DNA from: Candidatus Poribacteria bacterium
GTDB taxonomy: Bacteria > Poribacteria > WGA-4E > WGA-3G
Assembly: GCA_965205065.1 (NCBI GenBank)
Contig: CBDBFT010000001.1
Span: forward strand, 2,156,836-2,220,835
DNA length: 64,000 nt
Direction: 5' to 3'
Shown here: positions 21 through 54,782 of the stretch, piece after piece
Numbering within the stretch: the first letter of the stretch is position 1
Layout: each line of letters opens with the position of its first letter
Translations under genes and position numbers: made by a program
The notes under the pieces: generated by a model
Seen by the model: the letters and a program-made list of their open reading frames with translations, nothing else
The model's database searches: none
Told to the model about the DNA's origin: nothing

Positions 21-3000
21 CTTTTAATCGCACCAGTTTGGAATAGAAACGCTGTCAATGCACGTTGTGAAATCTGTTTTGCTTGTACTTTTAATCGCAC
101 CAGTTTGGAATAGAAACAAAAATTAAACGCATCGTCGTAGAATCGAATTTGTTGACCTTTTAATCGCACCAGTTTGGAATAGAAACGATTTTAAAGTGCG
201 AATAGAAATTATAAATGGGAAAACTTTTAATCGCACCAGTTTGGAATAGAAACCTTACCGTTTTCAAGCCTTGATGTGTAAGACATTTTCTTTTAATCGC
301 ACCAGTTTGGAATAGAAACGAAATTGTCCAGATGTCCCCGGCAAGATTGGCGCCGGGCTTTTAATCGCACCAGTTTGGAATAGAAACGAGATCGTAAGCG
401 CGCGCACGCCTGTCAGACTCCTCTTTTAATCGCACCAGTTTGGAATAGAAACAATGAATGATCAGACTGTTATTCGTATCTTTGATCAGCTTTTAATCGC
501 ACCAGTTTGGAATAGAAACCAAATGCGTTGCGGCAAGTTGGGGTTTGCATTCACCTTTTAATCGCACCAGTTTGGAATAGAAACTCCACCTTTGAAAGTT
601 TTCATTAGCTGATTGTTCACTTTTAATCGCACCAGTTTGGAATAGAAACTTCCCATAATATTTCAACTGGGTGACCTTCGTCTGTCTTTTAATCGCACCA
701 GTTTGGAATAGAAACCCTATAAAAGGTGAAATATGAAATCGCAAACAGAATGGAAACTTTTAATCGCACCAGTTTGGAATAGAAACGCAATTGCGTTGAA
801 GCCTCGCGTATCAAAGTTTTCACTTTTAATCGCACCAGTTTGGAATAGAAACACGACGAAGAGGGGCTTTACGAGTGAACTTCATTGACTTTTAATCGCA
901 CCAGTTTGGAATAGAAACAAACCTCCATGCAGTCAACAGGAACATAGGTTTATCACTTTTAATCGCACCAGTTTGGAATAGAAACCCAACACGTCACTTG
1001 AGAATGCGATCACACTGCAAGAACTTTTAATCGCACCAGTTTGGAATAGAAACCGGACAAAATAACATAGCTGTATCAGGTCTATCCTTTTCCTTTTAAT
1101 CGCACCAGTTTGGAATAGAAACATCATAAATGTCATGCGTTGGATTGTTGGGTCTTCAGCCTTTTAATCGCACCAGTTTGGAATAGAAACTGTACTTGAT
1201 TACCTCTCCCATATCTGCATCTTGATCTTTTAATCGCACCAGTTTGGAATAGAAACTCCAAAAATGATGTTTCTATCCTTGATCGGCCTTTACTTTTAAT
1301 CGCACCAGTTTGGAATAGAAACAGTTTATCAGAGTCTTTTTTCTCAATAATCACTTGTCTTTTAATCGCACCAGTTTGGAATAGAAACGTTTTTATGATA
1401 ACCCCGATTTATCAAATCCTTCGAGCTTTTAATCGCACCAGTTTGGAATAGAAACGAGTCTATAGTCGCTTTCCTAAGAAGGTTATGATACCCTTTTAAT
1501 CGCACCAGTTTGGAATAGAAACCTGGCACAACACCACCAGAAAGACGAGACGATATGGTCCTTTTAATCGCACCAGTTTGGAATAGAAACACGCTTACGA
1601 AACTCTTTACACACAGCCACCGTATTCTTTTAATCGCACCAGTTTGGAATAGAAACCCCTCATACGGATTAAATGTAACTTCATCAAGCACCCTTTTAAT
1701 CGCACCAGTTTGGAATAGAAACGGTGGCGACGGTAGAAGTCCGCTTGTGCGTTGCATCCTTTTAATCGCACCAGTTTGGAATAGAAACGTCTGACTGAGT
1801 AACCGGGTGGCGACGGTAGAAGTCCCTTTTAATCGCACCAGTTTGGAATAGAAACAGCACGGATAAAGTCATCTGTCGTTCTTATCTCTGTCGCTTTTAA
1901 TCGCACCAGTTTGGAATAGAAACCAAAGCCAGACAACTCTAAATCATCATACCAAATAAACTTTTAATCGCACCAGTTTGGAATAGAAACAACTCAAAGA
2001 AAATCACATAACGAAAATTATAACCACTTTTAATCGCACCAGTTTGGAATAGAAACATATTCTATAAGAATAGCTATAGTCTTCTTCGTTTCTTTTAATC
2101 GCACCAGTTTGGAATAGAAACACTTTTTACAAGATGATTGATACTACCAAGCGAGGTTCCTTTTAATCGCACCAGTTTGGAATAGAAACCCCCACGTGAC
2201 AGATCAGCAAACACTTGTGTATACTTTTAATCGCACCAGTTTGGAATAGAAACCGCGTCTCCGCAAAAATAAAAGCATGCAAATGGATGCGTCTTTTAAT
2301 CGCACCAGTTTGGAATAGAAACTGGTATCATTATTTTCTTGCTGGTGTGGTTGTTGGCTTTTAATCGCACCAGTTTGGAATAGAAACTGTCAAATAATAC
2401 TCTTTAATCAAGAAGAATACGACGCTTTTAATCGCACCAGTTTGGAATAGAAACGTTTAATTGGGAGAATTTACTTGCGATTTATAATTCACTTTTAATC
2501 GCACCAGTTTGGAATAGAAACGTCAAGGATTTCCTCGCCACGCGCATCTGTTCTACGTCTTTTAATCGCACCAGTTTGGAATAGAAACTGCCCATCTGTC
2601 AGTATAAAAGTCACTCTATTATCTTTTAATCGCACCAGTTTGGAATAGAAACATGTATAGGATATCGCATGCGGTCGAAAATGTTGTCTCTTTTAATCGC
2701 ACCAGTTTGGAATAGAAACCCGACCCAGTCTTTGAGTATTATATTACCATTTTTAACTTTTAATCGCACCAGTTTGGAATAGAAACTGTTATAACAGAGA
2801 AGAGTGTCAGTGAACTTGTAGATGAACTTTTAATCGCACCAGTTTGGAATAGAAACTCCTCTTTGTCACCTCCTCTCTGTGTTATCTATCTCTCTTTTAA
2901 TCGCACCAGTTTGGAATAGAAACTTTGTCGTTAGCCATTGCGTTTCCTCTTTCCTCTACCTTTTAATCGCACCAGTTTGGAATAGAAACTTCCACCACCC

Positions 3001-6000
3001 AGTCTTGTATGCTGATATTTCCTGCGTGCTTTTAATCGCACCAGTTTGGAATAGAAACATAGGTGTGATAGCCAGCAGTGCCAGAACCGAAGCCCTTTTA
3101 ATCGCACCAGTTTGGAATAGAAACACGCCTACGTGCAACCTATTGATGGGAGGAATTCCTTTTAATCGCACCAGTTTGGAATAGAAACGACGCTCAACGC
3201 CACCAATACCGATGCGAGCACCCCACCTTTTAATCGCACCAGTTTGGAATAGAAACGAGGATAACCAGTTCAGCGTTGACAGCGTTGTTGTCTTTCTTTT
3301 AATCGCACCAGTTTGGAATAGAAACAGTGTCCGCACGCAGACGCATATATTTTATTGCTACCTTTTAATCGCACCAGTTTGGAATAGAAACTTTTTCAAA
3401 ACTTGATATTCCATTATAAACCCCCTTTCTTTTAATCGCACCAGTTTGGAATAGAAACAAGAGGAGTATGGTGACAGCGACTTGTGGGACGCACTTTTAA
3501 TCGCACCAGTTTGGAATAGAAACTCTGAATAAAGAGTTGTTTTTGCCAGCATGGCATTCTTTTAATCGCACCAGTTTGGAATAGAAACTATTAATTATAT
3601 GATACAATTATAACGTGGAATCAGGTACTTTTAATCGCACCAGTTTGGAATAGAAACAACTCTGCTTCTGTCTGCTTTTGTGTCAGACCTTCAACTTTTA
3701 ATCGCACCAGTTTGGAATAGAAACTGCCTAATCTGACAGCCAAACAGGCTGCATTAGGCAAGCTTTTAATCGCACCAGTTTGGAATAGAAACGTGAGAAT
3801 TAGTCATTCAAAACTTCGCCAGTGTTTCTTTTAATCGCACCAGTTTGGAATAGAAACTTTATTTATTGATAAATTTCATCTATCTCTTTTTGCTTTTAAT
3901 CGCACCAGTTTGGAATAGAAACGATCAACCGCATCAGCTACATGTGCGGAAACGAGGGCTTTTAATCGCACCAGTTTGGAATAGAAACGCGCGCGGGATC
4001 GCATAGCTGCCGTCAAAGCCGAGATTGACTTTTAATCGCACCAGTTTGGAATAGAAACTTCAACTGCGAACGGTTTTCGCTGGTTAGTAACTATTCTTTT
4101 AATCGCACCAGTTTGGAATAGAAACGATATATATAGATGCAAAATCAGGTATTGTCTGCACTTTTAATCGCACCAGTTTGGAATAGAAACAGGACATGTC
4201 TGATATTGGATTATCAGATGTGTCTGTCCTTTTAATCGCACCAGTTTGGAATAGAAACGGTCTTATCTCATTTGAAGAAGCACCATATCAACGCGCACTT
4301 TTAATCGCACCAGTTTGGAATAGAAACATCCCGACTCGGCAATACTCACAAAAGAGGGTGTATATGCCTTTTAATCGCACCAGTTTGGAATAGAAACGCG
4401 ATTTAATATAAAACTGAAATGGTACGGAGAACGGACTTTTAATCGCACCAGTTTGGAATAGAAACAGTAAATCGGGATTCTGCTCAATTACTGCTAAAAA
4501 GCCTTTTAATCGCACCAGTTTGGAATAGAAACAGTCGTCTCAAGTCTATTATAGCAACTCTTATGAATTCAACTTTTAATCGCACCAGTTTGGAATAGAA
4601 ACTCGCATTCATGCTGACTTTCTTGAAAATCAGCACTTCCTTTTAATCGCACCAGTTTGGAATAGAAACATAATAATTTAACGTAATAGTCTATGTCAAT
4701 GACGTCCCTTTTAATCGCACCAGTTTGGAATAGAAACGACAGCTGCCCTGCCCGGTGCCTATTCATGATAATAGTCTTTTAATCGCACCAGTTTGGAATA
4801 GAAACGTGCGTTTTTCCTGTCTCGTTGTCAACGACTAAAATGCTTTTAATCGCACCAGTTTGGAATAGAAACTTTAATATGTTGATTCTTGATAGCATCT
4901 GACTATAAACCTTTTAATCGCACCAGTTTGGAATAGAAACTATTGTCCAGGCTTTCACTTCAGCAAATAATCATGAACTTTTAATCGCACCAGTTTGGAA
5001 TAGAAACTGCAATATCTATACCTGAATCTCCGCAAGCTGCCGTAGACCTTTTAATCGCACCAGTTTGGAATAGAAACGTTTGTCATTGACGCTGATCGTA
5101 TCCGTTTCATTCGCTTTTAATCGCACCAGTTTGGAATAGAAACCGTCTTGTTTCTGAACAATGAAACCGAGGGCCTTCACTTTTAATCGCACCAGTTTGG
5201 AATAGAAACCGCCAATATCGTAAGCCATTCCGTGCTTTAAGTCCTCGACTTTTAATCGCACCAGTTTGGAATAGAAACTCCAAGTGGGCAATTCAGAGTA
5301 CACCTGCCCGCACCTTCTTTTAATCGCACCAGTTTGGAATAGAAACTGACGATAAAAATCGTACTTGAGGGTAGTGAAATCACTTTTAATCGCACCAGTT
5401 TGGAATAGAAACCTATATCAAGAGCCAACAACTCAAGATTGGACAACCTTTTAATCGCACCAGTTTGGAATAGAAACGCAATCTTCGCATTAGCACAATG
5501 CTTCGCATTAGGTGACTTTTAATCGCACCAGTTTGGAATAGAAACGTGTATAATATATATAGGTTTAGGATTAAGAAGTTCACTTTTAATCGCACCAGTT
5601 TGGAATAGAAACAAATGCGTATGTAAGGCAGTGGTTTTCTTACAATCACTTTTAATCGCACCAGTTTGGAATAGAAACGATAATAGAATATATTAGATTC
5701 AAATTCAACAAATTCGCTTTTAATCGCACCAGTTTGGAATAGAAACGTATCGGCAACTCGTTTTCTACATCTTGAAAATGGACTTTTAATCGCACCAGTT
5801 TGGAATAGAAACTGTTTTTATTTGTGCCTTGACGATATCCTTCCATTGACTTTTAATCGCACCAGTTTGGAATAGAAACCTTGAAGGCGCAGTGATAACA
5901 ATAGAAAAGGTATTGTCCTTTTAATCGCACCAGTTTGGAATAGAAACAGACAATCCACAACTGCATCGCAAGCTTCCAGGTACTTTTAATCGCACCAGTT

Positions 6001-9000
6001 TGGAATAGAAACGATATATTTAATTCAAGCGACAGGAACAGTCGGCACTTTTAATCGCACCAGTTTGGAATAGAAACGCTTGTGCGCGTGCTGCATAGTC
6101 TTGTGTGGTTGCTTCTTTTAATCGCACCAGTTTGGAATAGAAACCTGGCTTTAGTGAGTATTCATGATTATCGGCTGCTGCACTTTTAATCGCACCAGTT
6201 TGGAATAGAAACTTATAGTTGCATTTGCTCCTATAACAAAAAGCAGACTTTTAATCGCACCAGTTTGGAATAGAAACAGCTGATCGCAGCACCGATGACG
6301 CCAGCAACGGATTTGCTTTTAATCGCACCAGTTTGGAATAGAAACAATCGCACCAGTTCTACACAATCACAGTCGCGACAACTTTTAATCGCACCAGTTT
6401 GGAATAGAAACGGCTACGATTTCAACGTCACGGATTACAAAACCACGTTAACTTTTAATCGCACCAGTTTGGAATAGAAACAGTGCATACGGACTCCCGT
6501 TGCACTTGGGTGCTTTTTCTACTTTTAATCGCACCAGTTTGGAATAGAAACAGATCATCTCGTGCAATCTATTGAGATGATTTTCTACTTTTAATCGCAC
6601 CAGTTTGGAATAGAAACTTCTGCAGATGGCGGGATAGAACTAAAAATAACGGGACTTTTAATCGCACCAGTTTGGAATAGAAACCCAAAGGTGCCCCCCA
6701 TCTTCGCACTTTTGGTTTTGGAGCTCTTTTAATCGCACCAGTTTGGAATAGAAACGCAGTAGAAGCAACTGCGGAAACGGAAGATATCCGCCTTTTAATC
6801 GCACCAGTTTGGAATAGAAACACCGTCAGTTCGGACGGTAGACGCTTCAACAATTTTCTTTTAATCGCACCAGTTTGGAATAGAAACCGGTTTGAATAAG
6901 AAAGATAAGAACACAGGGAGAACCTTTTAATCGCACCAGTTTGGAATAGAAACACACAACGCATGATGACGTAGTAACCTTTATCGGTGACTTTTAATCG
7001 CACCAGTTTGGAATAGAAACCGATCAAGTTCTAAAGTTCGCAGGTGAGACACGACTTTTAATCGCACCAGTTTGGAATAGAAACTTCGGTTTTTAGTCTT
7101 GACAATCGGTGTCTTGACTTGCTTTTAATCGCACCAGTTTGGAATAGAAACTTACTTTCTGATGATGATATGCTGCTTGGAGAATCTTTTAATCGCACCA
7201 GTTTGGAATAGAAACGAAGCAGATCCACCTGTGGCGGAGGTTCTTGAAACTGACTTTTAATCGCACCAGTTTGGAATAGAAACATTATTAAACTATAGTC
7301 TATTAGACTTTTGATTATACCCTTTTAATCGCACCAGTTTGGAATAGAAACTTACCTTTTAGTTCAGTTGTAAGGTCGGGAAAATCTGTCTTTTAATCGC
7401 ACCAGTTTGGAATAGAAACTTCAATTGAGTAGCTTTGTATGTGCTGATTTACAACTTTTAATCGCACCAGTTTGGAATAGAAACGCAATATTGGCGATTG
7501 CACTTCCAAACTCGGCAACTCAGCTTTTAATCGCACCAGTTTGGAATAGAAACGTGTTTAGTATTTCCTTTATTCTGCGTCTTGCGTTTCCTTTTAATCG
7601 CACCAGTTTGGAATAGAAACGATATTGCGTTCCGCTTTCGGATATGCATACTCAAGCTTTTAATCGCACCAGTTTGGAATAGAAACTCTGTCACGATAAC
7701 TAATTCTGGTCTCGTCAACAACCTTTTAATCGCACCAGTTTGGAATAGAAACTGTCACGAGCGAATTGTAAAAGACGCTCGTTTGAGCTTTTAATCGCAC
7801 CAGTTTGGAATAGAAACCCTGCTTTATGTATACGGTCACCTGACATACTCACTTTTAATCGCACCAGTTTGGAATAGAAACGGCTCCCATAGCAATTCTG
7901 ATATTCGTTACTATAACCTTTTAATCGCACCAGTTTGGAATAGAAACGTATCTCTTGTTGGACAGCTGATATTACACGCTTGAGAATACTTTTAATCGCA
8001 CCAGTTTGGAATAGAAACTATTTCAACTCTGCGTAGGTTTCTATGTCAACAGCTAACCTTTTAATCGCACCAGTTTGGAATAGAAACAAATACGTTCTGT
8101 TTCAATAACAACATTGTCCCCAACTCGCTTTTAATCGCACCAGTTTGGAATAGAAACAAGGGGGGTTGTAGAGTTGGCGAACAACACAGAAACTTTTAAT
8201 CGCACCAGTTTGGAATAGAAACGCGTTAGTCAAAAGGCAGATTGACAGTGTCAGACCATCCTTTTAATCGCACCAGTTTGGAATAGAAACTCGTTACGAA
8301 TCAAGTTCTTGAGATTGGCACATCTGCTTTTAATCGCACCAGTTTGGAATAGAAACAATATATATAGATGCCAAATCGGGTATCGTCTGCAGCACTTTTA
8401 ATCGCACCAGTTTGGAATAGAAACTCCATCAATTCCTGGTGGCTCCATAACCTCTTGGGTTCTTTTAATCGCACCAGTTTGGAATAGAAACTGAGAGTCC
8501 TCTTTCAAGACTTCGCTTTTACCGTGGTCTGTCTTTTAATCGCACCAGTTTGGAATAGAAACTTGAGATACGGAGCAGCGTTGAGAGTGGATACAGGACT
8601 TTTAATCGCACCAGTTTGGAATAGAAACTTGAAGTCTGTGTGGTCTACACATATCCACATAACCTTGCCTCTTTTAATCGCACCAGTTTGGAATAGAAAC
8701 ATAGGATCACACCTGCCGGCTATTTAGCTAATCAGTATACTTTTAATCGCACCAGTTTGGAATAGAAACGTTTGATACGGATTCTACTTCGGATGATGAT
8801 CATGCCTTTTAATCGCACCAGTTTGGAATAGAAACTATACTATTGATAATCTTCGTACTTCACAGGATTGGCCTTTTAATCGCACCAGTTTGGAATAGAA
8901 ACTGTGGCAACTCATAAACACGCAAGGGATCTGCCTTACTTTTAATCGCACCAGTTTGGAATAGAAACTTGACGTGAAGTACCATAAACCAAAGAATTAT

Positions 9001-9440
9001 TAGGTTCCTTTTAATCGCACCAGTTTGGAATAGAAACGTCTGCTGTTCCGTGTTGTGTGGTGGTTTCCGTTTACTCTTTTAATCGCACCAGTTTGGAATA
9101 GAAACTTGATACAAATTTCAAGTCCCATGTGTGATTTCTCTTTTAATCGCACCAGTTTGGAATAGAAACGCTCTTGTTGGACACTGATATTTCTGAGTTG
9201 TATATCTGCTTTTAATCGCACCAGTTTGGAATAGAAACAAACACTTTAGTGTTTCTCACAATTCTATTTTGTGGCTTTTAATCGCACCAGTTTGGAATAG
9301 AAACCATCCTCTCCAGGCTGCTGATTGATCGTGATGTGGTTCCCTTTTAATCGCACCAGTTTGGAATAGAAACACATTCGAACAGGTGCACCTGACACCA
9401 AAGCATCTCCCTTTTAATCGCACCAGTTTGGAATAGAAAC
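21..9440 (+). CRISPR. Large CRISPR array, about 141 copies of the 30-bp repeat CTTTTAATCGCACCAGTTTGGAATAGAAAC with 35-41 bp unique spacers. Truncated at the window start, so the leader is presumably upstream of position 1.
   Basis: Direct reading: perfect 30-bp repeats at about 67-bp period from 21 (first full repeat) to 9411-9440 (last). The repeat ends in ATAGAAAC, a type I/III-like 8-nt 5' handle, which implies + strand transcription. Spacers are unique apart from a few related pairs. Confidence 0.97.
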
Positions 9441-9608
9441 TGAGGAAGATGAAGTGGATGTCTAAAGTTTATGTCAGAATCGCGGATTATCGCGGATGAC
9501 ACGGAAGGGGTTTCTTGTGCATTTCAAGTTTACTTTCACAAATTGGCGTTAATTTTAGCATAACCCCATAGACGGCAATTTAGTACAGAGAAGGATAATG
9601 AAGGATGA

Positions 9609-10320
9609 ATGTTGTATAAAGAAGCACAATCAAGGATGAATGTGCTACGGCAGTATCAAAAGGGATGGTGTAGGGTGAAGGGGATAGGTGGAAGGTTGGA
9701 AGGTTGGAAGGTTGGAAGAGGGGAAGGATGGAAGGTTGGAAGGTTGGAAGAGGGAAGGATGGAAGAGGGAAGAATGGATGGGAGGAAGGTTGGAAGAAAA
9801 GAAGAGGGAAGGATGGAAGGGTGGAAGGTTAGAGGGTTGTATGGGTGGAAGAAAGAAGCACAATCAAGGATGAATGTGCTACGGCAGTATCAAAAGGGAT
9901 GGTGTAGGGAAAAGGGGATAGATGGAAGGTTGGAAGGTTGGAAGAGGGGAAGGATGGAAGAGGGGAAGGTTGGAAGAGGGGAAGGTTGGAAGAGGGGAAG
10001 GATGGAAGGTTGGAAGGTTGGAAGAAAAGAAGAGGGAAGGATGGAAGGGTGGAAGGTTAGAGGGTTGTATGGGTGGAAGAAAGAAGCACAATCAAGGATG
10101 AATGTGCTACGGCAGTATCAAAAGGGATGGTGTAGGGAAAAGGGGATAGATGGAAGGTTGGAAGGTTGGAAGAGGGGAAGGATGGAAGGGTGGAAGGGTG
10201 GAAGAGGGAAGGATGGAAGAGGGGAAGGTTGGAAGAGGGAAGGATGGAAGGTTGGAAGGTTAGAGGGTTGTATGGGTGGAAGGAAGAAGCACAATCAAGG
10301 ATGAATGTGCTATAGGCATG
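9609..10320. repeat. Composite dispersed repeat: three higher-order units of about 220 bp. Each unit carries the hairpin motif AAGAAGCACAATCAAGGATGAATGTGCTAC plus a GGAAGG(A/T)TGGAAGAGGG minisatellite.
   Basis: Seen in sequence: the 9609-9670 module recurs near 9850 and near 10080. The ORFs across it (9609..10304 and others) are low-complexity translations (EGWKRGRMEEGK / SSILPLFHPS). Confidence 0.85.
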
Positions 10321-10488: not shown

Positions 10489-11511
10489 TTGGAAAACAGT
10501 AAGTTGTTATCATTCTACACGCCTAAAGAAGACTTCCTATTATCACTTAGAGGAAAGGGTAAGCATAAGTATGTACGTTACAACGGCCTCCCGCTGCGAT
10601 ATGCAGGTGGGAAGAGTCTCGGAGTAGGACATATAATTGAACACATTCCAGAAGGAATTGACAAACTTTCCTCTCCATTCATTGGCGGTGGATCAGTTGA
10701 AATCGCATGTGCAAAAGAACTTGGTATGCAGGTCAGAGCCTATGATGTTTTTGATATTCTCGTCAACTATTGGCAGGTGCAACTCTCCACAAGTCAACAA
10801 CTTGCAGAAAAACTTCTGGAATGGGAACCGACAAAAGAAAAGTATGCTGAAATAAAGACTACACTCAAGGGACATTGGACAGGTGAATCTCCTATTTCTG
10901 ATCCATTAGAGTTAGCTGCACACTACTGGTTTAATCATAACCTTTCATACGGACCCGGTTTTCTCGGATGGATGTCAAAGATTTACGAATCAACCAGCAG
11001 GTATATTTCAGCAGTAGAAAAAGTAAGAAAGTTTTCTTGTCCATCATTAGAAGTGCAACCCGGAAGTTTTGAACAAACCATTCCTCAACACAAAGAAGAA
11101 TTCCTTTATTGCGATCCTCCCTATTACCTTGATGATGGTAAAATGTTCAAAGGAATCTATCCACAGCGAAATTTTCCTGTTCATCATAAGGGTTTTAAAC
11201 ATGAAACCCTTCGTGACCTACTGTATGAACATGTAGGAGGGTTCGTGCTTTCATATAATGATTGTGATACAATCAGAAATTGGTATACTGATTTTGAAAT
11301 AATTGAGGTAAAATGGCAGTACACATTAGGACAAGGTGAAACACGGATTGGGAAAAATCGCATAGAAAAGGGTATGGGACATGTTAAAAAGTCTCACGAA
11401 TTGTTAATTATTGGAAAGAGAAAACGTTTATTATTGAACAGTTTTGGAAATAACGTAGAGGTAGAAAATCAGATTTCTGTATATGGCAGTGCAATACCTG
11501 ATTTAGATTAG
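10489..11511 (+). CDS. Dam-family (D12 class, alpha-group) N6-adenine DNA methyltransferase.
   Basis: N-terminal RYAGGK motif (compare Dam WAGGK), SAM-binding PFIGGGSVE (FxGxG) and catalytic DPPY (CDPPYYLDD). It lies 40 bp upstream of cas10 on the same strand. Confidence 0.85.
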   Translation: MENSKLLSFYTPKEDFLLSLRGKGKHKYVRYNGLPLRYAGGKSLGVGHIIEHIPEGIDKLSSPFIGGGSVEIACAKELGMQVRAYDVFDILVNYWQVQLSTSQQLAEKLLEWEPTKEKYAEIKTTLKGHWTGESPISDPLELAAHYWFNHNLSYGPGFLGWMSKIYESTSRYISAVEKVRKFSCPSLEVQPGSFEQTIPQHKEEFLYCDPPYYLDDGKMFKGIYPQRNFPVHHKGFKHETLRDLLYEHVGGFVLSYNDCDTIRNWYTDFEIIEVKWQYTLGQGETRIGKNRIEKGMGHVKKSHELLIIGKRKRLLLNSFGNNVEVENQISVYGSAIPDLD

Positions 11512-11550: not shown

Positions 11551-13857
11551 TTGAAACAACAACTTTTAACACTCGCAGCACTCCTACACGACATCGGCAA
11601 ATTTCGGCAACGCGCCACCGGACGCTACACAAAACACCAAGAACATAGCTACGAATTCGTCAACAACGATTTCAATACTTTCTTCGATCCTTGTGGAGAT
11701 ACCTTCAAAAACGCTATCCTAAACCACCATCATAAACCAGAACAACTTCAGCATCTCATAGAAAAACAGGTAGTATTAGCAGACCGTCTCTCCGCATCCG
11801 AACGCGAAGATGAGGAACGAGAAACGGAGGACTTCGTTGCATCTCCGCTCGCTTCTATTATGTCACGCCTTAAATGTGCTGAGAAAGAACATCGCTACAA
11901 ACTGACAAAACTCAATTTTGAACGGGACACGGTCATCCCACAAGAAACCGTTGAGGTCAATGAAAATGATTATGCAGGTTTGTGGGAGAAGTTTAAAGAG
12001 GAATTCAGCACAGCAACAGAAGGTAAAACCTATGAACCAGCACATTATCAAACCATCGTAGCACTCCTACACAAATACACAGTTCGTATACCGTCCGCAA
12101 CGCCGTGGGAAAAAGACGGAAAGAAAACGATCCCAGATATTTCGCTCTACGACCATCTCCGCACAACCGCAGCCATTGCAGCCTGTATCGGACACGAACT
12201 AAATGACGAAAACGAAGTTGACGCAATACTTAATGATACTGAAAAATCAGATCGGCACATAGCCTCGCTTATCAAAGGCGACATTTCGGGTATCCAGGAT
12301 TTTCTCTATCACATCCAATCCGATGGCGCATCCAACCAACTGCGTGGTCGTTCATTCTACCTGCAACTCCTCACGGAAGCAATCGCGCACTATGTCCTAA
12401 AGCAGTTTGAACTTCCTATCACAAACCTAATTCTCGCAAGTGGCGGACACTTCTTTATCCTTGCGCCTTACACCGAATCCAAAGAGAAGTTAAGCACAAT
12501 TCGACAAGAAATATCCCAAAAGTTGTGGGAACTCCATAGAGGCGATATTTCCTGCATGTTAGCGGGTATCTCCATAAAAGCACGCGATTTTAAAACTGAG
12601 AATTTCACGGAAAAATGGGATGCCGTTTCAAAAAAAGTCAATGAAAGAAAACAGCAGAAATGGTCAGAATTAGAAGCAGAACAGATGTTTGATAACCTCT
12701 TTGAGCCAAGCGATGACAGAACTATTAATGAACAGGAAGATGACGAAGAGAAGAAAAGAGACCCTTGGCAGTTTGAAAAACTTGGAAGGAAATTGCGGGA
12801 TGCAAAATATCTTATCACTTACGATATAGCAAAATCAGATATCCTTCCACAACCCAAATGGCACGATGCAATCAATGCCTTCGGTTTAGATGTTGAAGTC
12901 CTGGAAGATACCCGTGCCAAACCTGAACTGCAGGGAGTAAATACTGTTGTCTATAGACTCGGGGATACACGTTTTCTCGAAAATTCAGAAGATTTTCAAT
13001 CGGAAAACAACTTTGTTAGCTACGATTTCCGAATATTTAAACCCGTAATCGCATATCGGCACGATACAGATGAACCCGATAAAATCGCTGATTACAATCA
13101 CCTCGCAAACGCATCAGAAGGTGTTAACTGGTTCGGTGCACTCCGCATGGACGTTGATAACCTCGGCACCGTCTTCAAAGATAAACTTGAGAACGCAACC
13201 ATCTCACGGCATGCAACCTTAAGCAGAGAAATGCGCCTATTTTTTGAAGGATATGTCCCGAAACTATGTAAAGCATATAACGAGAACAAAAATAAACAGA
13301 TTCTTGAACTCATCTACGCTGGTGGTGATGACCTATTCCTTGTCGGTGGGTGGAGTGCGTTGCCTGATATAGCAGAACATATCCGCTCCGAATTTAAACA
13401 CTTTGTCACAGGTGCCCACGTAACGCTTTCAGGTGGTATCGCCATTGAACACATGAAGTATCCGCTTTATCAGTTTGCAGAACGGAGTGGCAATGCAGAA
13501 GACGCTGCAAAGGGTATTGATGAAAACAAGGATGCGATCTCATTTTTACAACTACCGATGAAATGGGAAGAGTTTGCTAAAGTGCGCGAATGGCACGAAA
13601 AGTTTACGAACGTACTAACAGGTCAAGACCAACTACCGCGCGACATACTCACCCGTCTCAGCCAGATATATGAAGATAAAGAGCGGTGGGCATGGCGTTC
13701 ACTCTACTACTTCCATCGACTACAAGAGAGATACAAATATGACGAACAGAAAGATTTTCTACGTGAACTAAAACAGAAACTTAACCACGAAGATTCTTCT
13801 CAATTTAGAGAGGAACTCATCCATGTCATTACCAGATGGACCGCACTACGTATCAGA

Positions 13858-13866
<9 letters not shown>
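11551..13866 (+). CDS. cas10: Cas10 (Csm1-like) large subunit with an N-terminal HD nuclease domain and a GGDD cyclase/Palm motif.
   Basis: LHDIGKF HD motif at residues about 11-17. IYAGGDDLFLVGGW GGDD motif in the C-terminal half. 771 aa. First gene of a csm2-csm5 series. Confidence 0.9.
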
Positions 13867-14632
<766 letters not shown>

Positions 14633-14644
14633 AGGAGGAAACAC

Positions 14645-15478
14645 ATGCCAAGTATTAAACTACACGGAAAAATCTTTCTAAAAGGCACAATAAACGCCTT
14701 AACAGGTTTACACATCGGCGGCAACACAGGTGAATTAGACATCGGCGGTATTGATAATGCAATCATACGAAACGCCTTCAACCGACAGCCTTACATTCCC
14801 GGTTCGTCCCTACGTGGAAAGATGCGAGGTTTACTCGACAGGCACTTTGCAAAGGAATTGAATAGACCTGTCGGTAGAGATGTCCGAGTTAACGAGTGCA
14901 AAACACCGGAAGAATATTATACATGTCCAATTTCTCAAGTTTTCGGTGTCGCACCCATACAACAATTAAGAGGTAAAACGATGCCGACACGTGTGATCGT
15001 CCGAGACACCTTTTTAACTGACGAATCACTGGCAGTACTGGAAAAAGCCGATACCGACACAGATTTCACTGAAATCAAAACAGAGGTAGCAATTGACCGA
15101 ATCACCTCAGCGGCAACACCACGTCAACAAGAACGTGTCCCCGCAGGTGCAAAATTCGGACCATTTCAAATAGTCCACAGTCTCTATACACAGCACGGCA
15201 CTAATTACGACAATCAACTTCAAGACGAACTCAAACTTTTCGACACCGTCCTAAAAGGTATGGAACTCCTTGAAGACGATTACCTCGGCGGCTCCGGTTC
15301 GCGCGGCTCAGGGCAGATAGCATTTGAGAATCTGACGATGACCTTCAAATCGCGTGAATGCTATGAAAAAGTTGATATAGATCCGATAACTATCAATTTG
15401 CCCGAAAACGCAGACATCAAAGCAGTCCGTCAATCCGAATACGTTGAGCAAATTCGGAATGCAATCCCCGCGGAATAG
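14645..15478 (+). CDS. csm3: Csm3 (Cas7-group RAMP backbone subunit).
   Basis: G-rich loop LTGLHIGGNTGE and a QPYIPGSSLRGKMRG motif typical of Csm3. Position in operon. Confidence 0.85.
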   Translation: MPSIKLHGKIFLKGTINALTGLHIGGNTGELDIGGIDNAIIRNAFNRQPYIPGSSLRGKMRGLLDRHFAKELNRPVGRDVRVNECKTPEEYYTCPISQVFGVAPIQQLRGKTMPTRVIVRDTFLTDESLAVLEKADTDTDFTEIKTEVAIDRITSAATPRQQERVPAGAKFGPFQIVHSLYTQHGTNYDNQLQDELKLFDTVLKGMELLEDDYLGGSGSRGSGQIAFENLTMTFKSRECYEKVDIDPITINLPENADIKAVRQSEYVEQIRNAIPAE

Positions 15479-15486
15479 GTACACTT

Positions 15487-16518
15487 ATGGAAGATTATAC
15501 CGTCTATTGCTTACAGTTCAAAACCCAATTACATCTCGGACGCGCCACAGGTGCAGCACAAACTGGCAGCCTCGGCTTAGAGAAAACCGAGACCTACATC
15601 CCCGCAGACACCCTCTTTTCTGCGATATGCCAAACATGGTCAACCTTTTACGACACCGCAAGCCTCACCGATTTTCTCAATCAATACACAGCAGAAAACG
15701 GGACGCTTCCCTTTACCTTAACCTCTGCATTCCCGTACGCACAAAACATCTGTTTCTATCCCAAACCGATGATATGGACAGATAGATCAAAAGAAAGCAA
15801 ACGTATCCAATTTGTGTCGGACAACATATTTCAGCAGATTATTGCAGACAATCCACCAGCATTCGATAAAAAGCAGTTGATTACCGGAGAAAATGTTTGG
15901 ATAAGCGATACGGAAAAAAATCTGTTGAAGATAACAGATGGGGATGATTATGAAATTTGGAAAACTGCTACGCGTCCGCGCGTTACCATCGGTGCACAAA
16001 ACGCCGGATCCGAAATATGGCACGTCCAAACCGTCCAATTCAACAAAAACTGTGGACTCTGGTTCGCTGCGAAATTTGACTCTGATGCAACAAAACAGAA
16101 AGTAGAAACACTACTCCGAGTGCTTGGAGATAACGGCATCGGTGGTGAACGCAACGCTGGATATGGGCAGTTTGAGTTTGCCGAAGCAGAATGTAAGATA
16201 CCGTCAGCAGAAGATAGCACCCAATTTGTAACGCTTTCACCGATATGTCCCAAATCATCGGAGCAACTTGAGCATCTCCTCAAAGGTAATATCGCTTACA
16301 ACCTAAATCCATTAACAGGATGGGTAGGTTCACCAGGTACACATAAAAGGAGAAAAAAGGGCAATATGTTCGCTGAAGGTTCTGTTTTAAATGCTTATGA
16401 CGAACCCGTAGGCAGGTTGATAGATTTAAAACCGAAGGACTACCCGCATCCCGTCTATCGCTACGGATACGCATGGCAGGTCGGTATCAAAGTAGGAGGG
16501 AACTCCGATTCCCGATAA
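15487..16518 (+). CDS. csm4: Csm4 (Cas5-group RAMP).
   Basis: N-terminal LQFKTQLHLGRATG...YIPADTLFSAICQ pattern characteristic of Csm4. Position between csm3 and csm5. The C-terminus runs into the tandem repeat. Confidence 0.8.
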   Translation: MEDYTVYCLQFKTQLHLGRATGAAQTGSLGLEKTETYIPADTLFSAICQTWSTFYDTASLTDFLNQYTAENGTLPFTLTSAFPYAQNICFYPKPMIWTDRSKESKRIQFVSDNIFQQIIADNPPAFDKKQLITGENVWISDTEKNLLKITDGDDYEIWKTATRPRVTIGAQNAGSEIWHVQTVQFNKNCGLWFAAKFDSDATKQKVETLLRVLGDNGIGGERNAGYGQFEFAEAECKIPSAEDSTQFVTLSPICPKSSEQLEHLLKGNIAYNLNPLTGWVGSPGTHKRRKKGNMFAEGSVLNAYDEPVGRLIDLKPKDYPHPVYRYGYAWQVGIKVGGNSDSR

Positions 16519-16700
16519 GGTAGGAGGCCAACTATATAAAACTGGCCGATTCCCGATAAGGTAGGAGGGAACTCCGATTCCCGATAAGGTAGGAGGCCAA
16601 CTATATAAAACTGGCCGATTCCCGATAAGGTAGGAGGGAACTCCGATTCCCGATAAGGTAGGAGGCCAACTATATAAAACTGGCCGATTCCCGATAATGT
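16492..16700. repeat. Three tandem 69-bp units filling the csm4/csm5 junction. Each combines the GGGAACTCCGATTCCC hairpin with a GGCCA-N12-TGGCC hairpin and GGTAGGAGG boxes.
   Basis: Direct reading of 16492-16700. Same core as the 13858-14048 repeat. The core was not seen elsewhere in the window. Confidence 0.9.
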
Positions 16701-16713
16701 TGGAGACATCAGA

Positions 16714-17877
16714 ATGAAACAGAAATACAAACTTGAAACCATCACCCCTGTCCACATCGGATCAGGCGAAACGTTGAATCATATAGATGGCTATTACGTT
16801 AACGGCAGGTGGTATCGCATAGATTTAGACAAAGTATTAGCACATCCATCAACAAACATCAACGCGTTAACCTCCGAAATGTCCAAGCGTGATTTCCGTT
16901 GGAGCGATTACTTCTCACGACACAACATAAATGGTGCTGAACTGTCGGCGTATAGTCTGCTGTGTTCGCAAAGTCCCGAAACAGTCGACATTCGAGAGGC
17001 AATCAAATCTGTTGACAACCGTCCCTACATTCCCGGTAGCAGCATCAAAGGTGCAATCCGCACAGCGTTGTTATCGGATCTGATAAACAGTGATGAAAAC
17101 AGAAAACTCTATAACGATAGTTCAAAATATCTCAACAGGGAAATTGATAAAGGCGCGCCATCAAGACGTAGACCAGAACATCCTGCACGACAGATAGAAA
17201 ACTTAGCTTTTGGTAAAGACCCAAACCATGATTTATTGCGTGCATTACAGGTGAGTGATACTGAACCGCTTGAAAGTGAGGCACTTGCAATTGAAACGGC
17301 ATGGACGGTTACGCTCAACCAAAACAATCAACTTGTTCAGAAGATTGAGGGCAATACAGAATACAAAAACTGTGCAGAGGTAATTCAGGGTGGACAATCA
17401 TTGACATTTACACTCAAAATTGATGATTGGTTACTTGATGATCCTGCATACACTAAACTTGGTTTTACCGATACACAATATGGAGCTATCCACAGTATAT
17501 TTGATGTTTGTTATGGGGTAAATAAAAATTTTATAGATAAAGAAATAAAATTCTATAATAATTTCGCGAGTATCTATAATCTCTATAACGGACTAAACAA
17601 TACGAATGAATCACTCTCAAACGGGGTGTTCATACTGCAAATTGGATGGGGCACAGGATACCTTTCTAACACAGTAACCTCGTCCTTTACGCAAGCAGAG
17701 GATGCACCTGTAGACATTATGGCATTACGAGAACGTTATCGTTTAGGCAGGAGTCGTTCTAATCAACGGCAACCTTATGATGCCCGCGAATTCCCGAAAA
17801 CACGTCGTATCTTATACCGAGGACCAAACCCCATCGCACCACTCGGCTGGGTTAAAATATCACCAATAGAGGATTAA
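16714..17877 (+). CDS. csm5: Csm5 (Cas7-group RAMP).
   Basis: ITPVHIGSGE near the N-terminus and RPYIPGSSIKGAIRTALLS motifs. 387 aa. Last gene of the csm operon. Confidence 0.8.
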   Translation: MKQKYKLETITPVHIGSGETLNHIDGYYVNGRWYRIDLDKVLAHPSTNINALTSEMSKRDFRWSDYFSRHNINGAELSAYSLLCSQSPETVDIREAIKSVDNRPYIPGSSIKGAIRTALLSDLINSDENRKLYNDSSKYLNREIDKGAPSRRRPEHPARQIENLAFGKDPNHDLLRALQVSDTEPLESEALAIETAWTVTLNQNNQLVQKIEGNTEYKNCAEVIQGGQSLTFTLKIDDWLLDDPAYTKLGFTDTQYGAIHSIFDVCYGVNKNFIDKEIKFYNNFASIYNLYNGLNNTNESLSNGVFILQIGWGTGYLSNTVTSSFTQAEDAPVDIMALRERYRLGRSRSNQRQPYDAREFPKTRRILYRGPNPIAPLGWVKISPIED

Positions 17878-17881
17878 AGAA

Positions 17882-18228
17882 CTTTTAATCGCACCAGTTT
17901 GGAATAGAAACTGACAATACTATGTAAAATGTGGTATAATTAAGTACTTTTAATCGCACCAGTTTGGAATAGAAACCATTATAATTGGAGACGGAATATT
18001 TTGCAGTCTAAACTTTTAATCGCACCAGTTTGGAATAGAAACGGGTGATTAATGACTCCCCGTAGCTCAGTGAATAGAGCATGAGGTTTCTACCCTCAGT
18101 GTCACAGGTTTGAATCCTGTCGGGGAGTCCACTTTTAATCGCACCAGTTTGGAATAGAAACACTCCCAAGTTGGACATGACTTATCAATAATGAAAAGCT
18201 TTTAATCGCGCCCGTTGTGTAAAGTTTT
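17882..18228 (+). CRISPR. Second, leaderless mini-array: four perfect copies and one degenerate terminal copy of the same 30-bp repeat. One inter-repeat unit is a tRNA-like gene.
   Basis: Perfect repeats at 17882-17911, 17947-17976, 18013-18042 and 18132-18161. A degenerate copy at 18199-18228 (CTTTTAATCGCGCCCGTTGTG...) marks the trailer end. The first repeat starts 4 nt after the csm5 stop. Confidence 0.9.
18056..18131 (+). tRNA. tRNA-Arg(UCU)-like gene with genome-encoded CCA, sitting between two CRISPR repeats.
   Basis: Manual fold: acceptor CTCCCCG/CGGGGAG, D-stem GCTC/GAGC, anticodon stem TGAGG/CCTCA with loop TTTCTAC (anticodon TCT), T-stem ACAGG/CCTGT, discriminator T, then CCA. Non-canonical D-loop (AGTGAATA, no GG pair) and T-loop (TTTGAAT). 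A19-U56 could covary. It may be a divergent or pseudo tRNA. Confidence 0.7.
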
Positions 18229-18689
18229 TGTCCCTATATGTTTCTGGTGGCTAAAGTTCTCGTCAATAGACAGGTGAAATTAGCAATCTCCTCTGTCTTT
18301 AGCTTACAGAGCAGCTTATGGTTGTGAAAAAACTTTGAAATTCACAAAAACCCCTTCCGTGTCCTCCGTGTCCTCCGCGTAATCCGCGATTCAGACAGTT
18401 AAGTGCCAAATCTTTACACACCATTAGCGTCAATTTAGTTAAATACGTTAGTGAGTTTGATACACCTTTCGCCTCTCTGAGGCTTTGGAAAATCACATAT
18501 CAGCACCCGACAAATCATGACGAATACCAAACGCGTATTCGTCCAAGCGCATTTGGCGTTGATTTCGGTGCAGAAGGTGTATATAGAACACGAATCCGCA
18601 TAAACCTAAGCACCAGTGGTGCGAAAGGTATGGGGCTAAAATCGGTCTTATATAGCCTACCAACAAGAGGGAATATCCTTAAATTGACG

Positions 18690-19270
18690 CAAAAGGTGGT
18701 TGTATAAAGAAGCACAATCAAGGATGAATGTGCTACAAAGAAGCACAATCAAGGATGAATGTGCTACAGCAATATCAATATGGATGTTGGGGGGAGAGTG
18801 GTATTATGAGGATGAATGTTGTAGAAAGAGGCACAATCTAACAGAATGTGCTACAAAGAAGCACAATCAAGGATGAATGTGCTACAGCAGTATCAAAATG
18901 GATGGTGTAGGGGAGAGTGGTATTATGAGGATGTATGTTTTTGAAAGAGGCACAATCTAACAGAATGTGCTACAAAAGAGGCACAATCTAACAGAATGTG
19001 CTACAAAGAAGCACAATCAAGGATGAATGTGCTACAGCAGTATCAAAATGGATGGTGTAGGGGAGAAGGGTAATGAAGGATGAATGTTGTAGAAAGAGGC
19101 ACAATCTAACAGAATGTGCTACAAAGAAGCACAATCAAGGATGAATGTGCTACAGCAGTATCAAAATGGATGGTGTAGGGGAGAGTGGTATTATGAGGAT
19201 GTATGTTTTTGAAAGAGGCACAATCTAACAGAATGTGCTACAAAAGAGGCACAATCTAACGGAATGTCTA
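18690..19270. repeat. Higher-order tandem repeat: about three units of about 190 bp. Each alternates two hairpin motifs (AAGCACAATCAAGGATGAATGTGCT and AGGCACAATCTAACAGAATGTGCT) with GGATGGTGTAGGGGAGAG blocks.
   Basis: Direct reading. No unique spacers, so it is not CRISPR-like. It sits in an about 2.2-kb non-coding, repeat-dense stretch (18230-20560). Confidence 0.8.
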
Positions 19271-20339: not shown

Positions 20340-20560
20340 GTTACACCCATAGAAACGATGTTTTCATCCTTCCAATCTTCCCATCTTCCCATCTTCCACT
20401 CTTCCACTCTTCCACTCTTCCACTCTTCCATTCTTCCGGATCGGATCGTTTTACGATTGAGTCTCGTGGGTGCATCCTTCCCTCTTCCATCCTTCCCATC
20501 TTCCATCCTTCCCATCTTCCATCCTTCCCTCTTCCATCCTTCCCATCTTCCACCCATCCT
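20340..20560. repeat. GGAAGG-type minisatellite (reverse-complement orientation CTTCC/ATCTTCC).
   Basis: Direct reading. ORFs 20291..20578, 20307..20564 and 20341..20553 are low-complexity artefacts. Confidence 0.85.
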
Positions 20561-36536: not shown

Positions 36537-36609
36537 TGCGCCTGGGAGGAATCGAACCCCCGACACGAGGCTTAGGAAGCCCCTGCTCTATCCGCTGAGC
36601 TACAGGCGC
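36537..36609 (-). tRNA. tRNA-Arg(CCU).
   Basis: Reverse-complement fold: acceptor GCGCCTG/CAGGCGC, D-arm TAGCTCAGCGGATAGAGCA, anticodon loop TTCCTAA (anticodon CCT), T-arm GGGGGTTCGATTCCTCC. No encoded CCA. The ORF 36391..36612 is an artefact. Confidence 0.85.
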
Positions 36610-53597: not shown

Positions 53598-54782
53598 GTG
53601 ATAGAATCTGACCTTATGAAGATAATCGTTGCTCCTGATTCATTTAAAGGAAGCGTCACGGCATTGGAAGCAGCGAAGTCAATTGAACAAGGACTTCGAC
53701 GTGTACTTCCAGATGCAATCATAGATAAAATCCCAATGGCTGATGGGGGTGAAGGTACTGTTCAATCTCTTGTTGATGCGACAGGTGGACAATTCCGTAC
53801 TGAACGCGTTCTTGATCCTCTCGGCAACGAAATTGAAGCACAATACGGATTACTATCTGATGGTGCCAGCTCATATAACTGTGCTGTCATTGAGATGGCA
53901 TCTGCTTCAGGTTTAACACTCGTTCCAACTGAGAAACGAAACCCGCTACTTACGACAACTTACGGCACAGGTCAACTTATACGTTCCGCATTAGAAAGGA
54001 GATGTAGAAGACTGATTATCGGGATCGGTGGCAGTGCGACAAACGATGCAGGTGCTGGTATGGCTGAAGCACTCGGTGTACGTTTCTTGAATGTAGATGG
54101 CAATCCAATTAACATGGCAATAGGACGCGGCGGAGGAGGATTGACAGAAATAACATCTATAGATATTGCGGGTATCCATCCAGCAATATCTGAAACCGAG
54201 ACTGTTGTCGCATGTGATGTCAACAACCCTTTGACAGGTTCAGATGGAGCATCTCACGTCTATGGACCGCAGAAGGGGGCAACACCGGAGATGGTGAGAA
54301 CTCTTGATGACAATCTATCCCACTTTGATGACATCCTAACACAAACGTTTGGTCAATCTTATGATAGTATTCCCGGTGCAGGGGCTGCGGGTGGTTTGGG
54401 TGCTGGTCTTATGGCGTTCCTCAATGCCAGATTAAGACTTGGCGTTGATATTATGATTGATGCTGTTAATCTGAGAGAACGCATGAAAGGAGCATCACTG
54501 GTGATTACAGGAGAGGGACAGATAGATTTTCAGACAGCGTTTGGGAAGACACCTATAGGTGTTGCTAAGGTCGCAAAAGAAGCCAATATTCCTGTCATAG
54601 CAATTGCAGGGGGAATCGGTGAAGGTGCCGAAACTGTTTATGCCAAAGGTATTGATAGCATGTTAGGTATCGTCCACGCACCGATGTCTCTTGAAGATGC
54701 GGTTGAAGGTGCTTTGCAATTAATTGCTGATACTGCTGAGCAAGCTGCGAGATTAGTCATGATCGGTAAACATCTTCATTAG
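53598..54782 (+). CDS. glxK: Glycerate kinase.
   Basis: MKIIVAPDSFKGS N-terminus and a GGSATNDAGAGM motif. Confidence 0.85.
   Translation: MIESDLMKIIVAPDSFKGSVTALEAAKSIEQGLRRVLPDAIIDKIPMADGGEGTVQSLVDATGGQFRTERVLDPLGNEIEAQYGLLSDGASSYNCAVIEMASASGLTLVPTEKRNPLLTTTYGTGQLIRSALERRCRRLIIGIGGSATNDAGAGMAEALGVRFLNVDGNPINMAIGRGGGGLTEITSIDIAGIHPAISETETVVACDVNNPLTGSDGASHVYGPQKGATPEMVRTLDDNLSHFDDILTQTFGQSYDSIPGAGAAGGLGAGLMAFLNARLRLGVDIMIDAVNLRERMKGASLVITGEGQIDFQTAFGKTPIGVAKVAKEANIPVIAIAGGIGEGAETVYAKGIDSMLGIVHAPMSLEDAVEGALQLIADTAEQAARLVMIGKHLH

Follow-up and report, generated by a model that had tools for sequence, protein, structure and literature searches.

We studied a type III-A CRISPR locus in a stretch of 64,000 nucleotides (nt) from Candidatus Poribacteria, which are sponge symbionts (contig CBDBFT010000001.1 of assembly GCA_965205065.1). 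We refer to the whole 64-kb stretch as the window. The relatives of its Csm5 likewise point to Candidatus Poribacteria. The genes csm1/cas10 to csm5 adjoin an array of the same orientation, as in a type III-A locus; on this strand, the repeats have AUAGAAAC at their 3' end. A giant array (array 1) lies upstream of dam and csm1-5, and a mini-array of just four repeats lies downstream. One spacer slot of the mini-array contains a transfer RNA (tRNA) gene, tRNA-Arg(UCU), and it is this gene that we analyze here (Table 1). Besides csm5, the neighbors of the tRNA are repeats that resemble miniature inverted-repeat transposable elements (MITEs) and proteins that are sorted by the type IX secretion system. 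We did not find cas6, csm6, cas1, cas2, or cas4 in the window.

Table 1. Features of the CRISPR locus, numbered from the first base of the window
Feature	Position	Strand	Evidence or remarks
Array 1	21-9440	+	Repeat search; 141 perfect 30-nt repeats, spacers of 34-42 nt; runs off the start of the window
dam, Dam-type N6-adenine DNA methyltransferase	10489-11511	+	Marks the csm sub-lineage that bears the tRNA
Type III-A effector operon, csm1-csm5	11551-17877	+	NCBIfam equivalog matches for Csm1 to Csm5, all above cut-offs
csm1/cas10	11551-13866	+	
Cold-shock domain-csm2 fusion	13925-14632	+	
csm3	14645-15478	+	
csm4	15487-16518	+	
csm5	16714-17877	+	
Mini-array repeat R1	17882-17911	+	4 nt past the stop codon of csm5
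"Spacer" 1	17912-17946	+	Promoter-like, near the sigma-70 consensus; transcription would start near R2
Repeat R2, spacer 2, and repeat R3	17947-18042	+	R2, 17947-17976; spacer 2, 17977-18012; R3, 18013-18042
5' leader of the tRNA, 13 nt	18043-18055	+	GGGTGATTAATGA; complementary to repeat positions 4-14
tRNA-Arg(UCU)	18056-18131	+	C1-G72, U73, encoded CCA, D-loop AGUGAAUA, T-loop UUUGAAU
Repeat R4	18132-18161	+	Begins on the base after CCA
Spacer 4	18162-18198	+	37 nt
Terminal degenerate repeat	18199-18228	+	First ~15 nt genuine, then the inverted-repeat end GTGTAAAGTTTTTG of a MITE-like element

The tRNA gene and its structural class

The 30-nt repeat (CTTTTAATCGCACCAGTTTGGAATAGAAAC) is present in the window in 145 mismatch-free copies: 141 at 21-9440 and four at 17882-18161. 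The perfect repeats at 18013-18042 and 18132-18161 enclose a unit of 89 nt (18043-18131), which is the sole over-length unit among 144 in the window; the other 142 spacers are 34-42 nt long. ARAGORN identified a tRNA-Arg(tct) on the forward strand at 18056-18131, including the CCA. The Rfam tRNA model (RF00005) matched the same positions with 61.4 bits (gathering score, 29; E = 7e-11), and none of the stem pairs in the alignment were marked as non-standard. The CCA is encoded at 18129-18131, and base 18132 is the first base of the next repeat. The stems have 7, 4, 5, and 5 bp, and U8, A14, U33, R37, G53-C61, and T54-A58 are all present. The cloverleaf is the minimum-free-energy fold even if the flanking repeats are added. 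An earlier note on this stretch, made from the sequence alone, had described an 89-bp "spacer" with a 76-nt UCU cloverleaf whose CCA abuts the next repeat. This description holds on every point, and the covariance-model score that the note had asked for is well above the gathering score.

The note had also remarked that the tRNA lacks G18 and G19 and has U instead of C56, and that these changes might compensate each other. If the D-loop (AGUGAAUA) is numbered A14 G15 U16 G18 A19 A20 U20a A21, then it would still supply both G18 and A20, which is an identity base for arginyl-tRNA synthetase. Only G19 would be replaced, by A, with U56 opposite. So, the loss of G19 and the presence of U56 stand, but G18 can still be supplied by the D-loop. 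In place of the standard G19-C56 elbow pair, the array tRNA has A19-U56, which is a compensated but non-canonical form.

The exact D-arm 20-mer (GTAGCTCAGTGAATAGAGCA) occurs at 89 metagenome loci and on 11 viral contigs from IMG/VR. These loci encode 52 distinct tRNAs with this D-arm; of the 52, 47 are tRNA-Arg and 34 have the UCU anticodon. U56 is found in 46 of the 52, versus 14 of the 308 other tRNAs of the same loci (Fisher P = 8e-39). Because the two positions covary across the class, A19:U56 appears to be a real compensatory pair, as the note had suspected. Thirty of the 100 loci have at least five tRNAs, and some have up to 25 within a few kilobases. In the loci that we sampled, most of the genes around the tRNA belong to no known family; one locus (L125) has a gene for a T4-type RNA ligase beside the tRNA. 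Several members of the class share C1-G72 and an encoded CCA with the array tRNA. The nearest member is 78% identical to the array tRNA. Matches in cultured phages are 73-86% identical, which is the level expected of any tRNA-Arg. The eight other Poribacteria tRNAs that we inspected all have GG in the D-loop and TTCGA or TTCAA in the T-loop.

Across these metagenome and viral loci (L050-L149), the tRNA-Arg genes with A19:U56 (mostly UCU, with D-loop AGUGAAUA and T-loop UUUGAAU) form a widespread class, many of them in dense clusters. The window also contains a second tRNA, tRNA-Arg(CCU), on the reverse strand at 36537-36609 (63.4 bits), which is ordinary: it has G1-C72, GG, and C56, and CCA is not encoded.

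Related loci and conservation

We compared the window to three related Poribacteria loci, L036 (CAZURU01), L161 (ERZ23491400), and L165 (ERZ23491296), each of which has an orthologous tRNA beside the same repeat (62.9, 60.9, and 51.0 bits, respectively, by Rfam). L036 is the only locus with the tRNA among 23 Poribacteria loci from species-representative genomes; L161 and L165 came to light on the contigs that encode the closest Csm1 proteins. The four loci with the tRNA are all part of a sub-lineage in which dam adjoins csm1. The Dam protein by itself is too common in Poribacteria to trace this lineage. A fifth locus with dam (L163) ends at the edge of its contig. Loci with 82-83% Csm1 identity and no dam lack the tRNA, and the arrays of about 20 other Poribacteria csm loci have no tRNA next to them either.

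The surroundings of the tRNA vary. L036 is syntenic with the window (85-88% nucleotide identity across dam-csm1-4, with trpA downstream). In L036, only a stub of csm6 (its first ~100 nt) remains after csm5, joined to the final 18 nt of a repeat; a 17-nt leader, the tRNA with its CCA, and repeat-spacer-repeat-spacer-degenerate repeat come next. This locus has no cas6. In L161 and L165, the tRNA comes after the final repeat of an upstream array, and the order is cas3-cas1-cas2-array-tRNA-...-dam-csm1-5. Past the CCA, these two loci continue with a MITE (its right end), repetitive elements over ~350 nt, and then a perfect solitary repeat. Behind the solitary repeat, L161 has a spacer and then a partial repeat that is cut by another MITE end, which is the junction seen in the window at 18199-18228. 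Furthermore, the insertion in L161 (~360 nt) begins exactly after the CCA and has TCCA at both ends, as if a target site had been duplicated where the CCA once met a repeat. We infer that, ancestrally, the trailer end of an array had the arrangement repeat-leader-tRNA-repeat-spacer-terminal repeat.

In their full layout, the related loci begin with cas6, cas7, cas5, and cas3 of type I-B, continue with csm1-5 and a CARF/Csm6-like gene, and end with cas4, a I-B-like cas1, cas2, and a long array. Many of them have a second array upstream, and these relatives are I-B/III-A hybrids. We saw no reverse transcriptase in the related loci: the adaptation genes encode plain Cas4, type I-B-like Cas1, and Cas2.

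The four copies of the tRNA differ only at nucleotides 38 (C or U, in the anticodon loop) and 45 (U or G, in the variable loop), and L165 also has a 1-nt insertion in the D-arm. The last 12 nt of the leader are identical in three of the four genomes; in L165, the leader is deleted, and the deletion stops 3 nt before C1. At four-fold degenerate sites, the window differs from each relative by 22-27% in csm1-4 and by 5-14% in dam. If the tRNA changed at the csm or dam rates, its 76 nt would have at most one change with a probability of 1e-9 to 7e-3 (0.10 in the comparison with the least diverged dam). Trailer-side spacers are normally the most conserved ones of an array. Across 1,293 Poribacteria spacers, the four tRNA loci have none in common, trailer-side spacers included. 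Also, four independent rearrangements end at the borders of the tRNA: the deletion in L036, the junction of csm5 and the array in the window, the insertion in L161, and the deletion of the leader in L165. Finally, MITE-bearing trailer sequence follows both arrays in the window, which suggests that the trailer region was duplicated there; one of the two copies keeps the tRNA, which fits selection for one intact gene. Overall, the array tRNA appears to be under selection.

These comparisons also show how far the unit resembles a canonical spacer. It has complete repeats on both sides, with the same 3' junction in L036. However, it is 89 nt long instead of 34-42 nt, no near-identical viral or plasmid sequence was found for it, and it has been retained in four genomes that share no other spacer.

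Repetitive elements are also present in these loci. Two MITE-like families, with inverted ends GGGTGTGTAAAGTTTTTG and GTCAGAATCGCGGATTATCGCGG, insert into CRISPR repeats or trailers and create "spacers" of 326-360 nt (window, 9456-9545 and 18214-18425; L009, 16960-17285; L017, 3512-3845; L161, 1843-2135). We considered whether other Poribacteria "spacers" of odd length (104-360 nt) contain further tRNAs: these units contained MITE-like elements or merged units, and none matched an Rfam family. In the window, GGAAGG-type tandem repeats with a period of about 8 nt at 9690-10320 and 20350-20559 match each other's reverse complement, with inverted repeats of up to 87 nt, and bracket the entire dam-csm-mini-array block. 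An open reading frame of 231 amino acids (9609-10304) within these repeats is probably not a gene. The csm1/csm2 (13850-14081) and csm4/csm5 (16489-16705) junctions have tandem repeats of another kind (39/77 nt and 69 nt; AGGTAGGAGGGAACTCCGATTCCCGA...), which contain repeated GGAGG motifs that resemble ribosome-binding sites.

The operon has two other unusual features. The N-terminal domain that is fused to Csm2 is a cold-shock (CSD/OB) RNA-binding domain, and the same fusion is present in the gene calls of many related Poribacteria loci (L159, L160, L161, L167, L170, and L171). The csm5 gene is a mosaic: between the window (16714-17877) and L036 (8320-9480), the proteins are 59% identical overall, and the last 93 nt are 91% identical as nucleotides. 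(For csm1-4, the proteins are 76-90% identical.) This indicates recombination inside the operon.

Transcription and maturation

In all four loci, the tRNA and the repeats point in the same direction, so the tRNA would be part of the precursor CRISPR RNA (pre-crRNA) or of read-through transcripts from csm. On the forward strand of the window, no terminator was predicted from the mini-array to position 18700. In addition, "spacer" 1 of the mini-array contains CTGACA, an 18-nt gap, and TGgTATAAT, which match 11 of 12 consensus positions and include the TG of an extended -10 element. Array 1, at 9.6 kb, has one match to 11 of 12 positions, on the opposite strand and with no TG. Just 7 of 1,188 Poribacteria spacers have extended -10 motifs, and 2 of these lie two to three units upstream of the tRNA (P = 8e-4). 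The spacer with this motif in L165 (8471-8510) is three units upstream.

The leader (GGGUGAUUAA) is complementary to positions 4-14 of the repeat. The predicted pairing (-11.2 kcal/mol) is stronger than for 98-99% of control 13-mers, and in an intermediate that has been cut by Cas6, it would lengthen the acceptor stem by ~14 bp. The pairing could form a processing stem, mask the repeat, or be a footprint of the unit's origin. The leader does not qualify as the anti-repeat of a trans-activating CRISPR RNA: no Cas9 was found, csm1-5 being the only cas genes identified in the window (the rest of which is incompletely annotated), and L165 has lost the leader.

As for whether the cell needs a tRNA of this kind, AGA accounts for 100 of the 517 arginine codons (19%) in 23 genes of the window. 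Because AGA is regularly used, a tRNA-Arg(UCU) should be needed.

We propose that the tRNA matures as follows. In types I and III, Cas6 cleaves the repeat 8 nt from its 3' end, and an encoded CCA is the usual determinant for bacterial RNase P. The tRNA would be transcribed within the pre-crRNA or by read-through from csm and, in the window, possibly also from the promoter-like spacer two units upstream. A Cas6 that is encoded elsewhere in the genome would cleave the downstream repeat 22 nt beyond the CCA; the resulting intermediate would consist of AUAGAAAC, leader, and tRNA, plus a 22-nt stretch of repeat. With the encoded CCA as an aid, RNase P would cut at C1 and remove the repeat tag with the 13-nt leader. 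The 3'-to-5' exonucleases that also trim type III CRISPR RNAs (crRNAs) would remove the 22-nt trailer back to the CCA. The freed tRNA would decode AGA, and the adjoining crRNAs would be made as usual. The sequence partly supports the transcription step; we infer the steps that involve RNase P, Cas6, and trimming.

Function, origin, and alternative explanations

Taken together, these results indicate that the unit in this spacer slot is probably a real tRNA-Arg(UCU) gene that selection has preserved at the trailer, the old end of a type III-A/I-B array in Poribacteria. On our reading, it serves translation and not targeting. That the tRNA might be functional was among the possibilities raised by the earlier note, and this is supported by the covariance score, the intact conserved positions, the A19:U56 pair, and the conservation in four genomes despite the turnover of spacers. 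We also considered whether the unit might be a targeting guide. The crRNA would be tRNA-sense and would pair with antisense RNA only, with no plausible target, and none of the 1,293 Poribacteria spacers match the unit. The note's alternative of a match to a phage or plasmid protospacer was not borne out: no near-identical viral or plasmid sequence was found.

The origin of the gene is the least certain part of this interpretation. We favor the capture of foreign DNA, either by over-length integration by Cas1-Cas2 or by recombination with a virus-borne mini-array, because the A19:U56 class is common in phage-like tRNA clusters and differs from the host tRNAs that we inspected. In other words, the array tRNA looks foreign or phage-like. 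The base-exact junction with the downstream repeat suggests integration by Cas1-Cas2 or repeat-to-repeat recombination, not random deletion. In Streptococcus thermophilus, type III-A adaptation preferentially samples tRNA and rRNA gene clusters (PMC8860593). On viral contigs in IMG/VR, the repeat family of the window occurs as mini-arrays and as solitary repeats, some of them directly behind promoter-like sequences. After the capture, selection would have kept the tRNA while the surrounding array lost DNA, took up MITEs, and was relocated from the end of array 1 to a site behind csm5. The full scenario, in which the adaptation machinery or recombination with a viral mini-array installed a complete, working phage tRNA as an over-length "spacer" that the host later domesticated, is quite unlikely in our judgment. 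If it is true, then CRISPR arrays are a route to acquire functional genes; the maturation of tRNA-Arg(UCU) is coupled to array transcription and to Cas6; and the translation of AGA is tied to keeping the CRISPR locus.

Two spacers from another host locus (L006, 12901-12940 and 13631-13667) match CRISPR-repeat-like sequences on IMG/VR contigs (L150-L158). Among these contigs, L151 and L155 have mini-arrays of three repeats, and L154 and L157 have solitary repeats behind promoter-like sequences. Thus, virus-borne repeats and host spacers against them seem to coexist in this system.

Two other ideas about the origin were set aside. The CCA that abuts the repeat raised the possibility that a mature tRNA was captured by a reverse transcriptase, but the relatives have no reverse transcriptase and a 5' leader of 13-17 nt is present; the window's own adaptation genes lie outside it. 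The encoded CCA is also uninformative as a mark of foreign DNA, as Poribacteria tRNA genes are mixed, with and without CCA.

Several observations weigh against a functional gene or against its foreign origin. At a neutral divergence like that of dam (5-9%), the conservation of the tRNA has P values of only about 0.007-0.1 per comparison. The copy in L165 has lost its leader, has a C13-C22 mismatch in the D-stem, and scores just 51 bits, which hints that it is under relaxed constraint or dispensable there, unless these lesions are an assembly error. The combination of C1-G72 and U73 is uncommon in bacterial tRNA-Arg. The promoter-like spacer is missing from L036 and L161. We found no identical or near-identical tRNA in IMG/VR, in INPHARED phages, or in PLSDB plasmids, and no viral junction of the form "[T-loop...CCA][repeat]". 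Finally, an 89-bp insert far exceeds the 34-42 nt ruler, and the relatives' Cas4-Cas1-Cas2 machinery is not accompanied by a reverse transcriptase.

The tRNA could have the same function but a different history: it may be a native, possibly the only, tRNA-Arg(UCU) gene that happened to lie at the trailer end of the array and became framed by repeats through recombination and through deletions that reached its borders. In an array, the trailer end is older and changes less than any other part, independent deletions and insertions halt at the borders of the tRNA, the trailer was apparently duplicated in the window with one copy retaining the tRNA, and a cell that regularly uses AGA requires such a tRNA. 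We nevertheless consider a native gene to be unlikely. An exact junction between the CCA and a complete repeat, which is present in two genomes and in the inferred ancestor of L161, should rarely arise from random deletions, and the structural class of the array tRNA is unlike that of the eight other Poribacteria tRNAs. Also, ~20 other Poribacteria csm loci have no tRNA at their arrays, and the copy in L165 looks damaged. At the other extreme, the unit might be an inert relic, that is, an over-length spacer or an integration scar that holds a copy of a tRNA and has no present function. This would suit a single outlier among 144 units, the heavy sampling of tRNA genes reported for type III-A adaptation (PMC8860593), and the two lesions in L165. 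It is hard to reconcile with the intact stems and with conservation in four genomes despite complete turnover of the spacers and 22-27% synonymous divergence nearby, and we view it as very unlikely. An integration relic in particular, which the earlier note had suggested, is not supported: there is no integrase, prophage, or duplication of an attachment site near the tRNA, the window has no second copy of the tRNA's 3' half, and the sequence shows conservation instead of decay.

The remaining alternatives give the unit a role besides translation. The cloverleaf might be an RNA-processing or stabilizing element, kept mainly because RNase P cuts there or because it stops exonucleases, and not as a source of tRNA for translation; it would separate the csm mRNA from the crRNAs or protect the 3' end of the pre-crRNA. 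In the window and in L036, the tRNA lies less than 200 nt past csm5 with no predicted terminator between them; neither locus has cas6; and the conserved leader can pair with the adjacent repeat more strongly than 98-99% of controls, which would extend the acceptor stem by 14 bp. However, in L161 and L165 the tRNA is upstream of dam-csm and does not separate the csm mRNA from crRNAs, and L165 has lost the leader. The anticodon loop, A20, A37, and other positions that matter for translation are intact and conserved, which a purely structural element would not need. And RNase P and RNase Z cannot produce the 8-nt repeat-derived 5' tag. An element of this kind thus seems quite improbable; the punctuation by RNase P and RNase Z that the earlier note had proposed could occur as a side effect, but it cannot replace Cas6. 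Another idea is a safeguard or addiction device that mirrors CreTA (discussed below): if an essential or limiting tRNA-Arg(UCU) is tied to the CRISPR locus, then losing the array, its transcription, or processing by Cas6 would harm the cell. The related loci are I-B/III-A hybrids, and the tRNA persists while its surroundings change. But AGA is not rare, there is no CreT-like mini-ORF (small open reading frame) with consecutive AGA/AGG codons near the locus, and csm6, cas4, cas1, cas2, and most of an array have been lost beside the tRNA in both the window and L036. We give this idea very little credence.

Comparison with known systems

Full-text searches of the literature for a tRNA gene that occupies a CRISPR spacer slot found no precedent, so the earlier note's description of the arrangement as "highly unusual" stands. 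A conserved and expressed-looking tRNA gene as the cargo of a CRISPR array thus seems not to have been described. As the tRNA is apparently functional, an array may also carry and express a housekeeping-type RNA, beyond short targeting sequences. This raises the questions of whether Cas1-Cas2 or array recombination can install a whole gene, whether Cas6 and the nucleases that trim crRNAs take part in tRNA maturation, and whether a tRNA can stabilize part of a CRISPR locus so that it is not lost. It also points to a little-noticed class of tRNA-Arg with A19:U56 that is common in phage-like tRNA clusters.

The closest parallels each share some features with this locus. In the CreTA systems of type I CRISPR-Cas, the toxin CreT sequesters tRNA-Arg(UCU) and is repressed by a guide (PMC8501985). 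These systems also link a small degenerate mini-CRISPR beside cas genes to tRNA-Arg(UCU). Here, in contrast, the tRNA gene itself is present, with no toxin mini-ORF: a scan of the window for mini-ORFs with consecutive rare AGA/AUA codons gave a single match, at 54262, which is far from the locus, and AGA is not rare. Short repeat-spacer-repeat units that carry a promoter of their own are also known as virus-borne mini-arrays, solitary repeat units, and RNA anti-CRISPRs (PMC10651486, PMC11656645). The repeat family of the window is present on IMG/VR viral contigs, and the first "spacer" of the window's mini-array is promoter-like. However, we found no viral contig with a tRNA beside such repeats, and the mini-array of the window is chromosomal and shares its trailer junction with its relatives.

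Non-spacer DNA between repeats has precedents in insertions of insertion sequences or MITEs and in cas genes between arrays, and Poribacteria arrays hold MITE-filled "spacers" of 326-360 nt. This unit differs in being a complete RNA gene that is predicted to be functional, with a base-exact 3' junction to the repeat, no transposon ends, and conservation across genomes. With the tRNA-Arg(UCU) genes in phage clusters, it shares the D-arm GTAGCTCAGTGAATAGAGCA, the T-loop UUUGAAU (with A19:U56), an encoded CCA (often), and C1-G72 (in some cases). But the array tRNA is chromosomal and lies inside a CRISPR array instead of a tRNA cluster, and its closest relative in the class is 78% identical.

Another close parallel is an engineered design. 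In tRNA-guide RNA ("PTG") arrays, tRNAs alternate with guides in one transcript, and the host's RNase P and 3' processing enzymes free both. The Poribacteria locus also seems to combine a tRNA and guide units in one transcript, and it may thus be nature's equivalent of these arrays, which were designed to edit genomes at multiple sites. In the natural array, however, there is one tRNA among the crRNA units, the ends of the guides would come from Cas6, and the tRNA is apparently the product that is selected.

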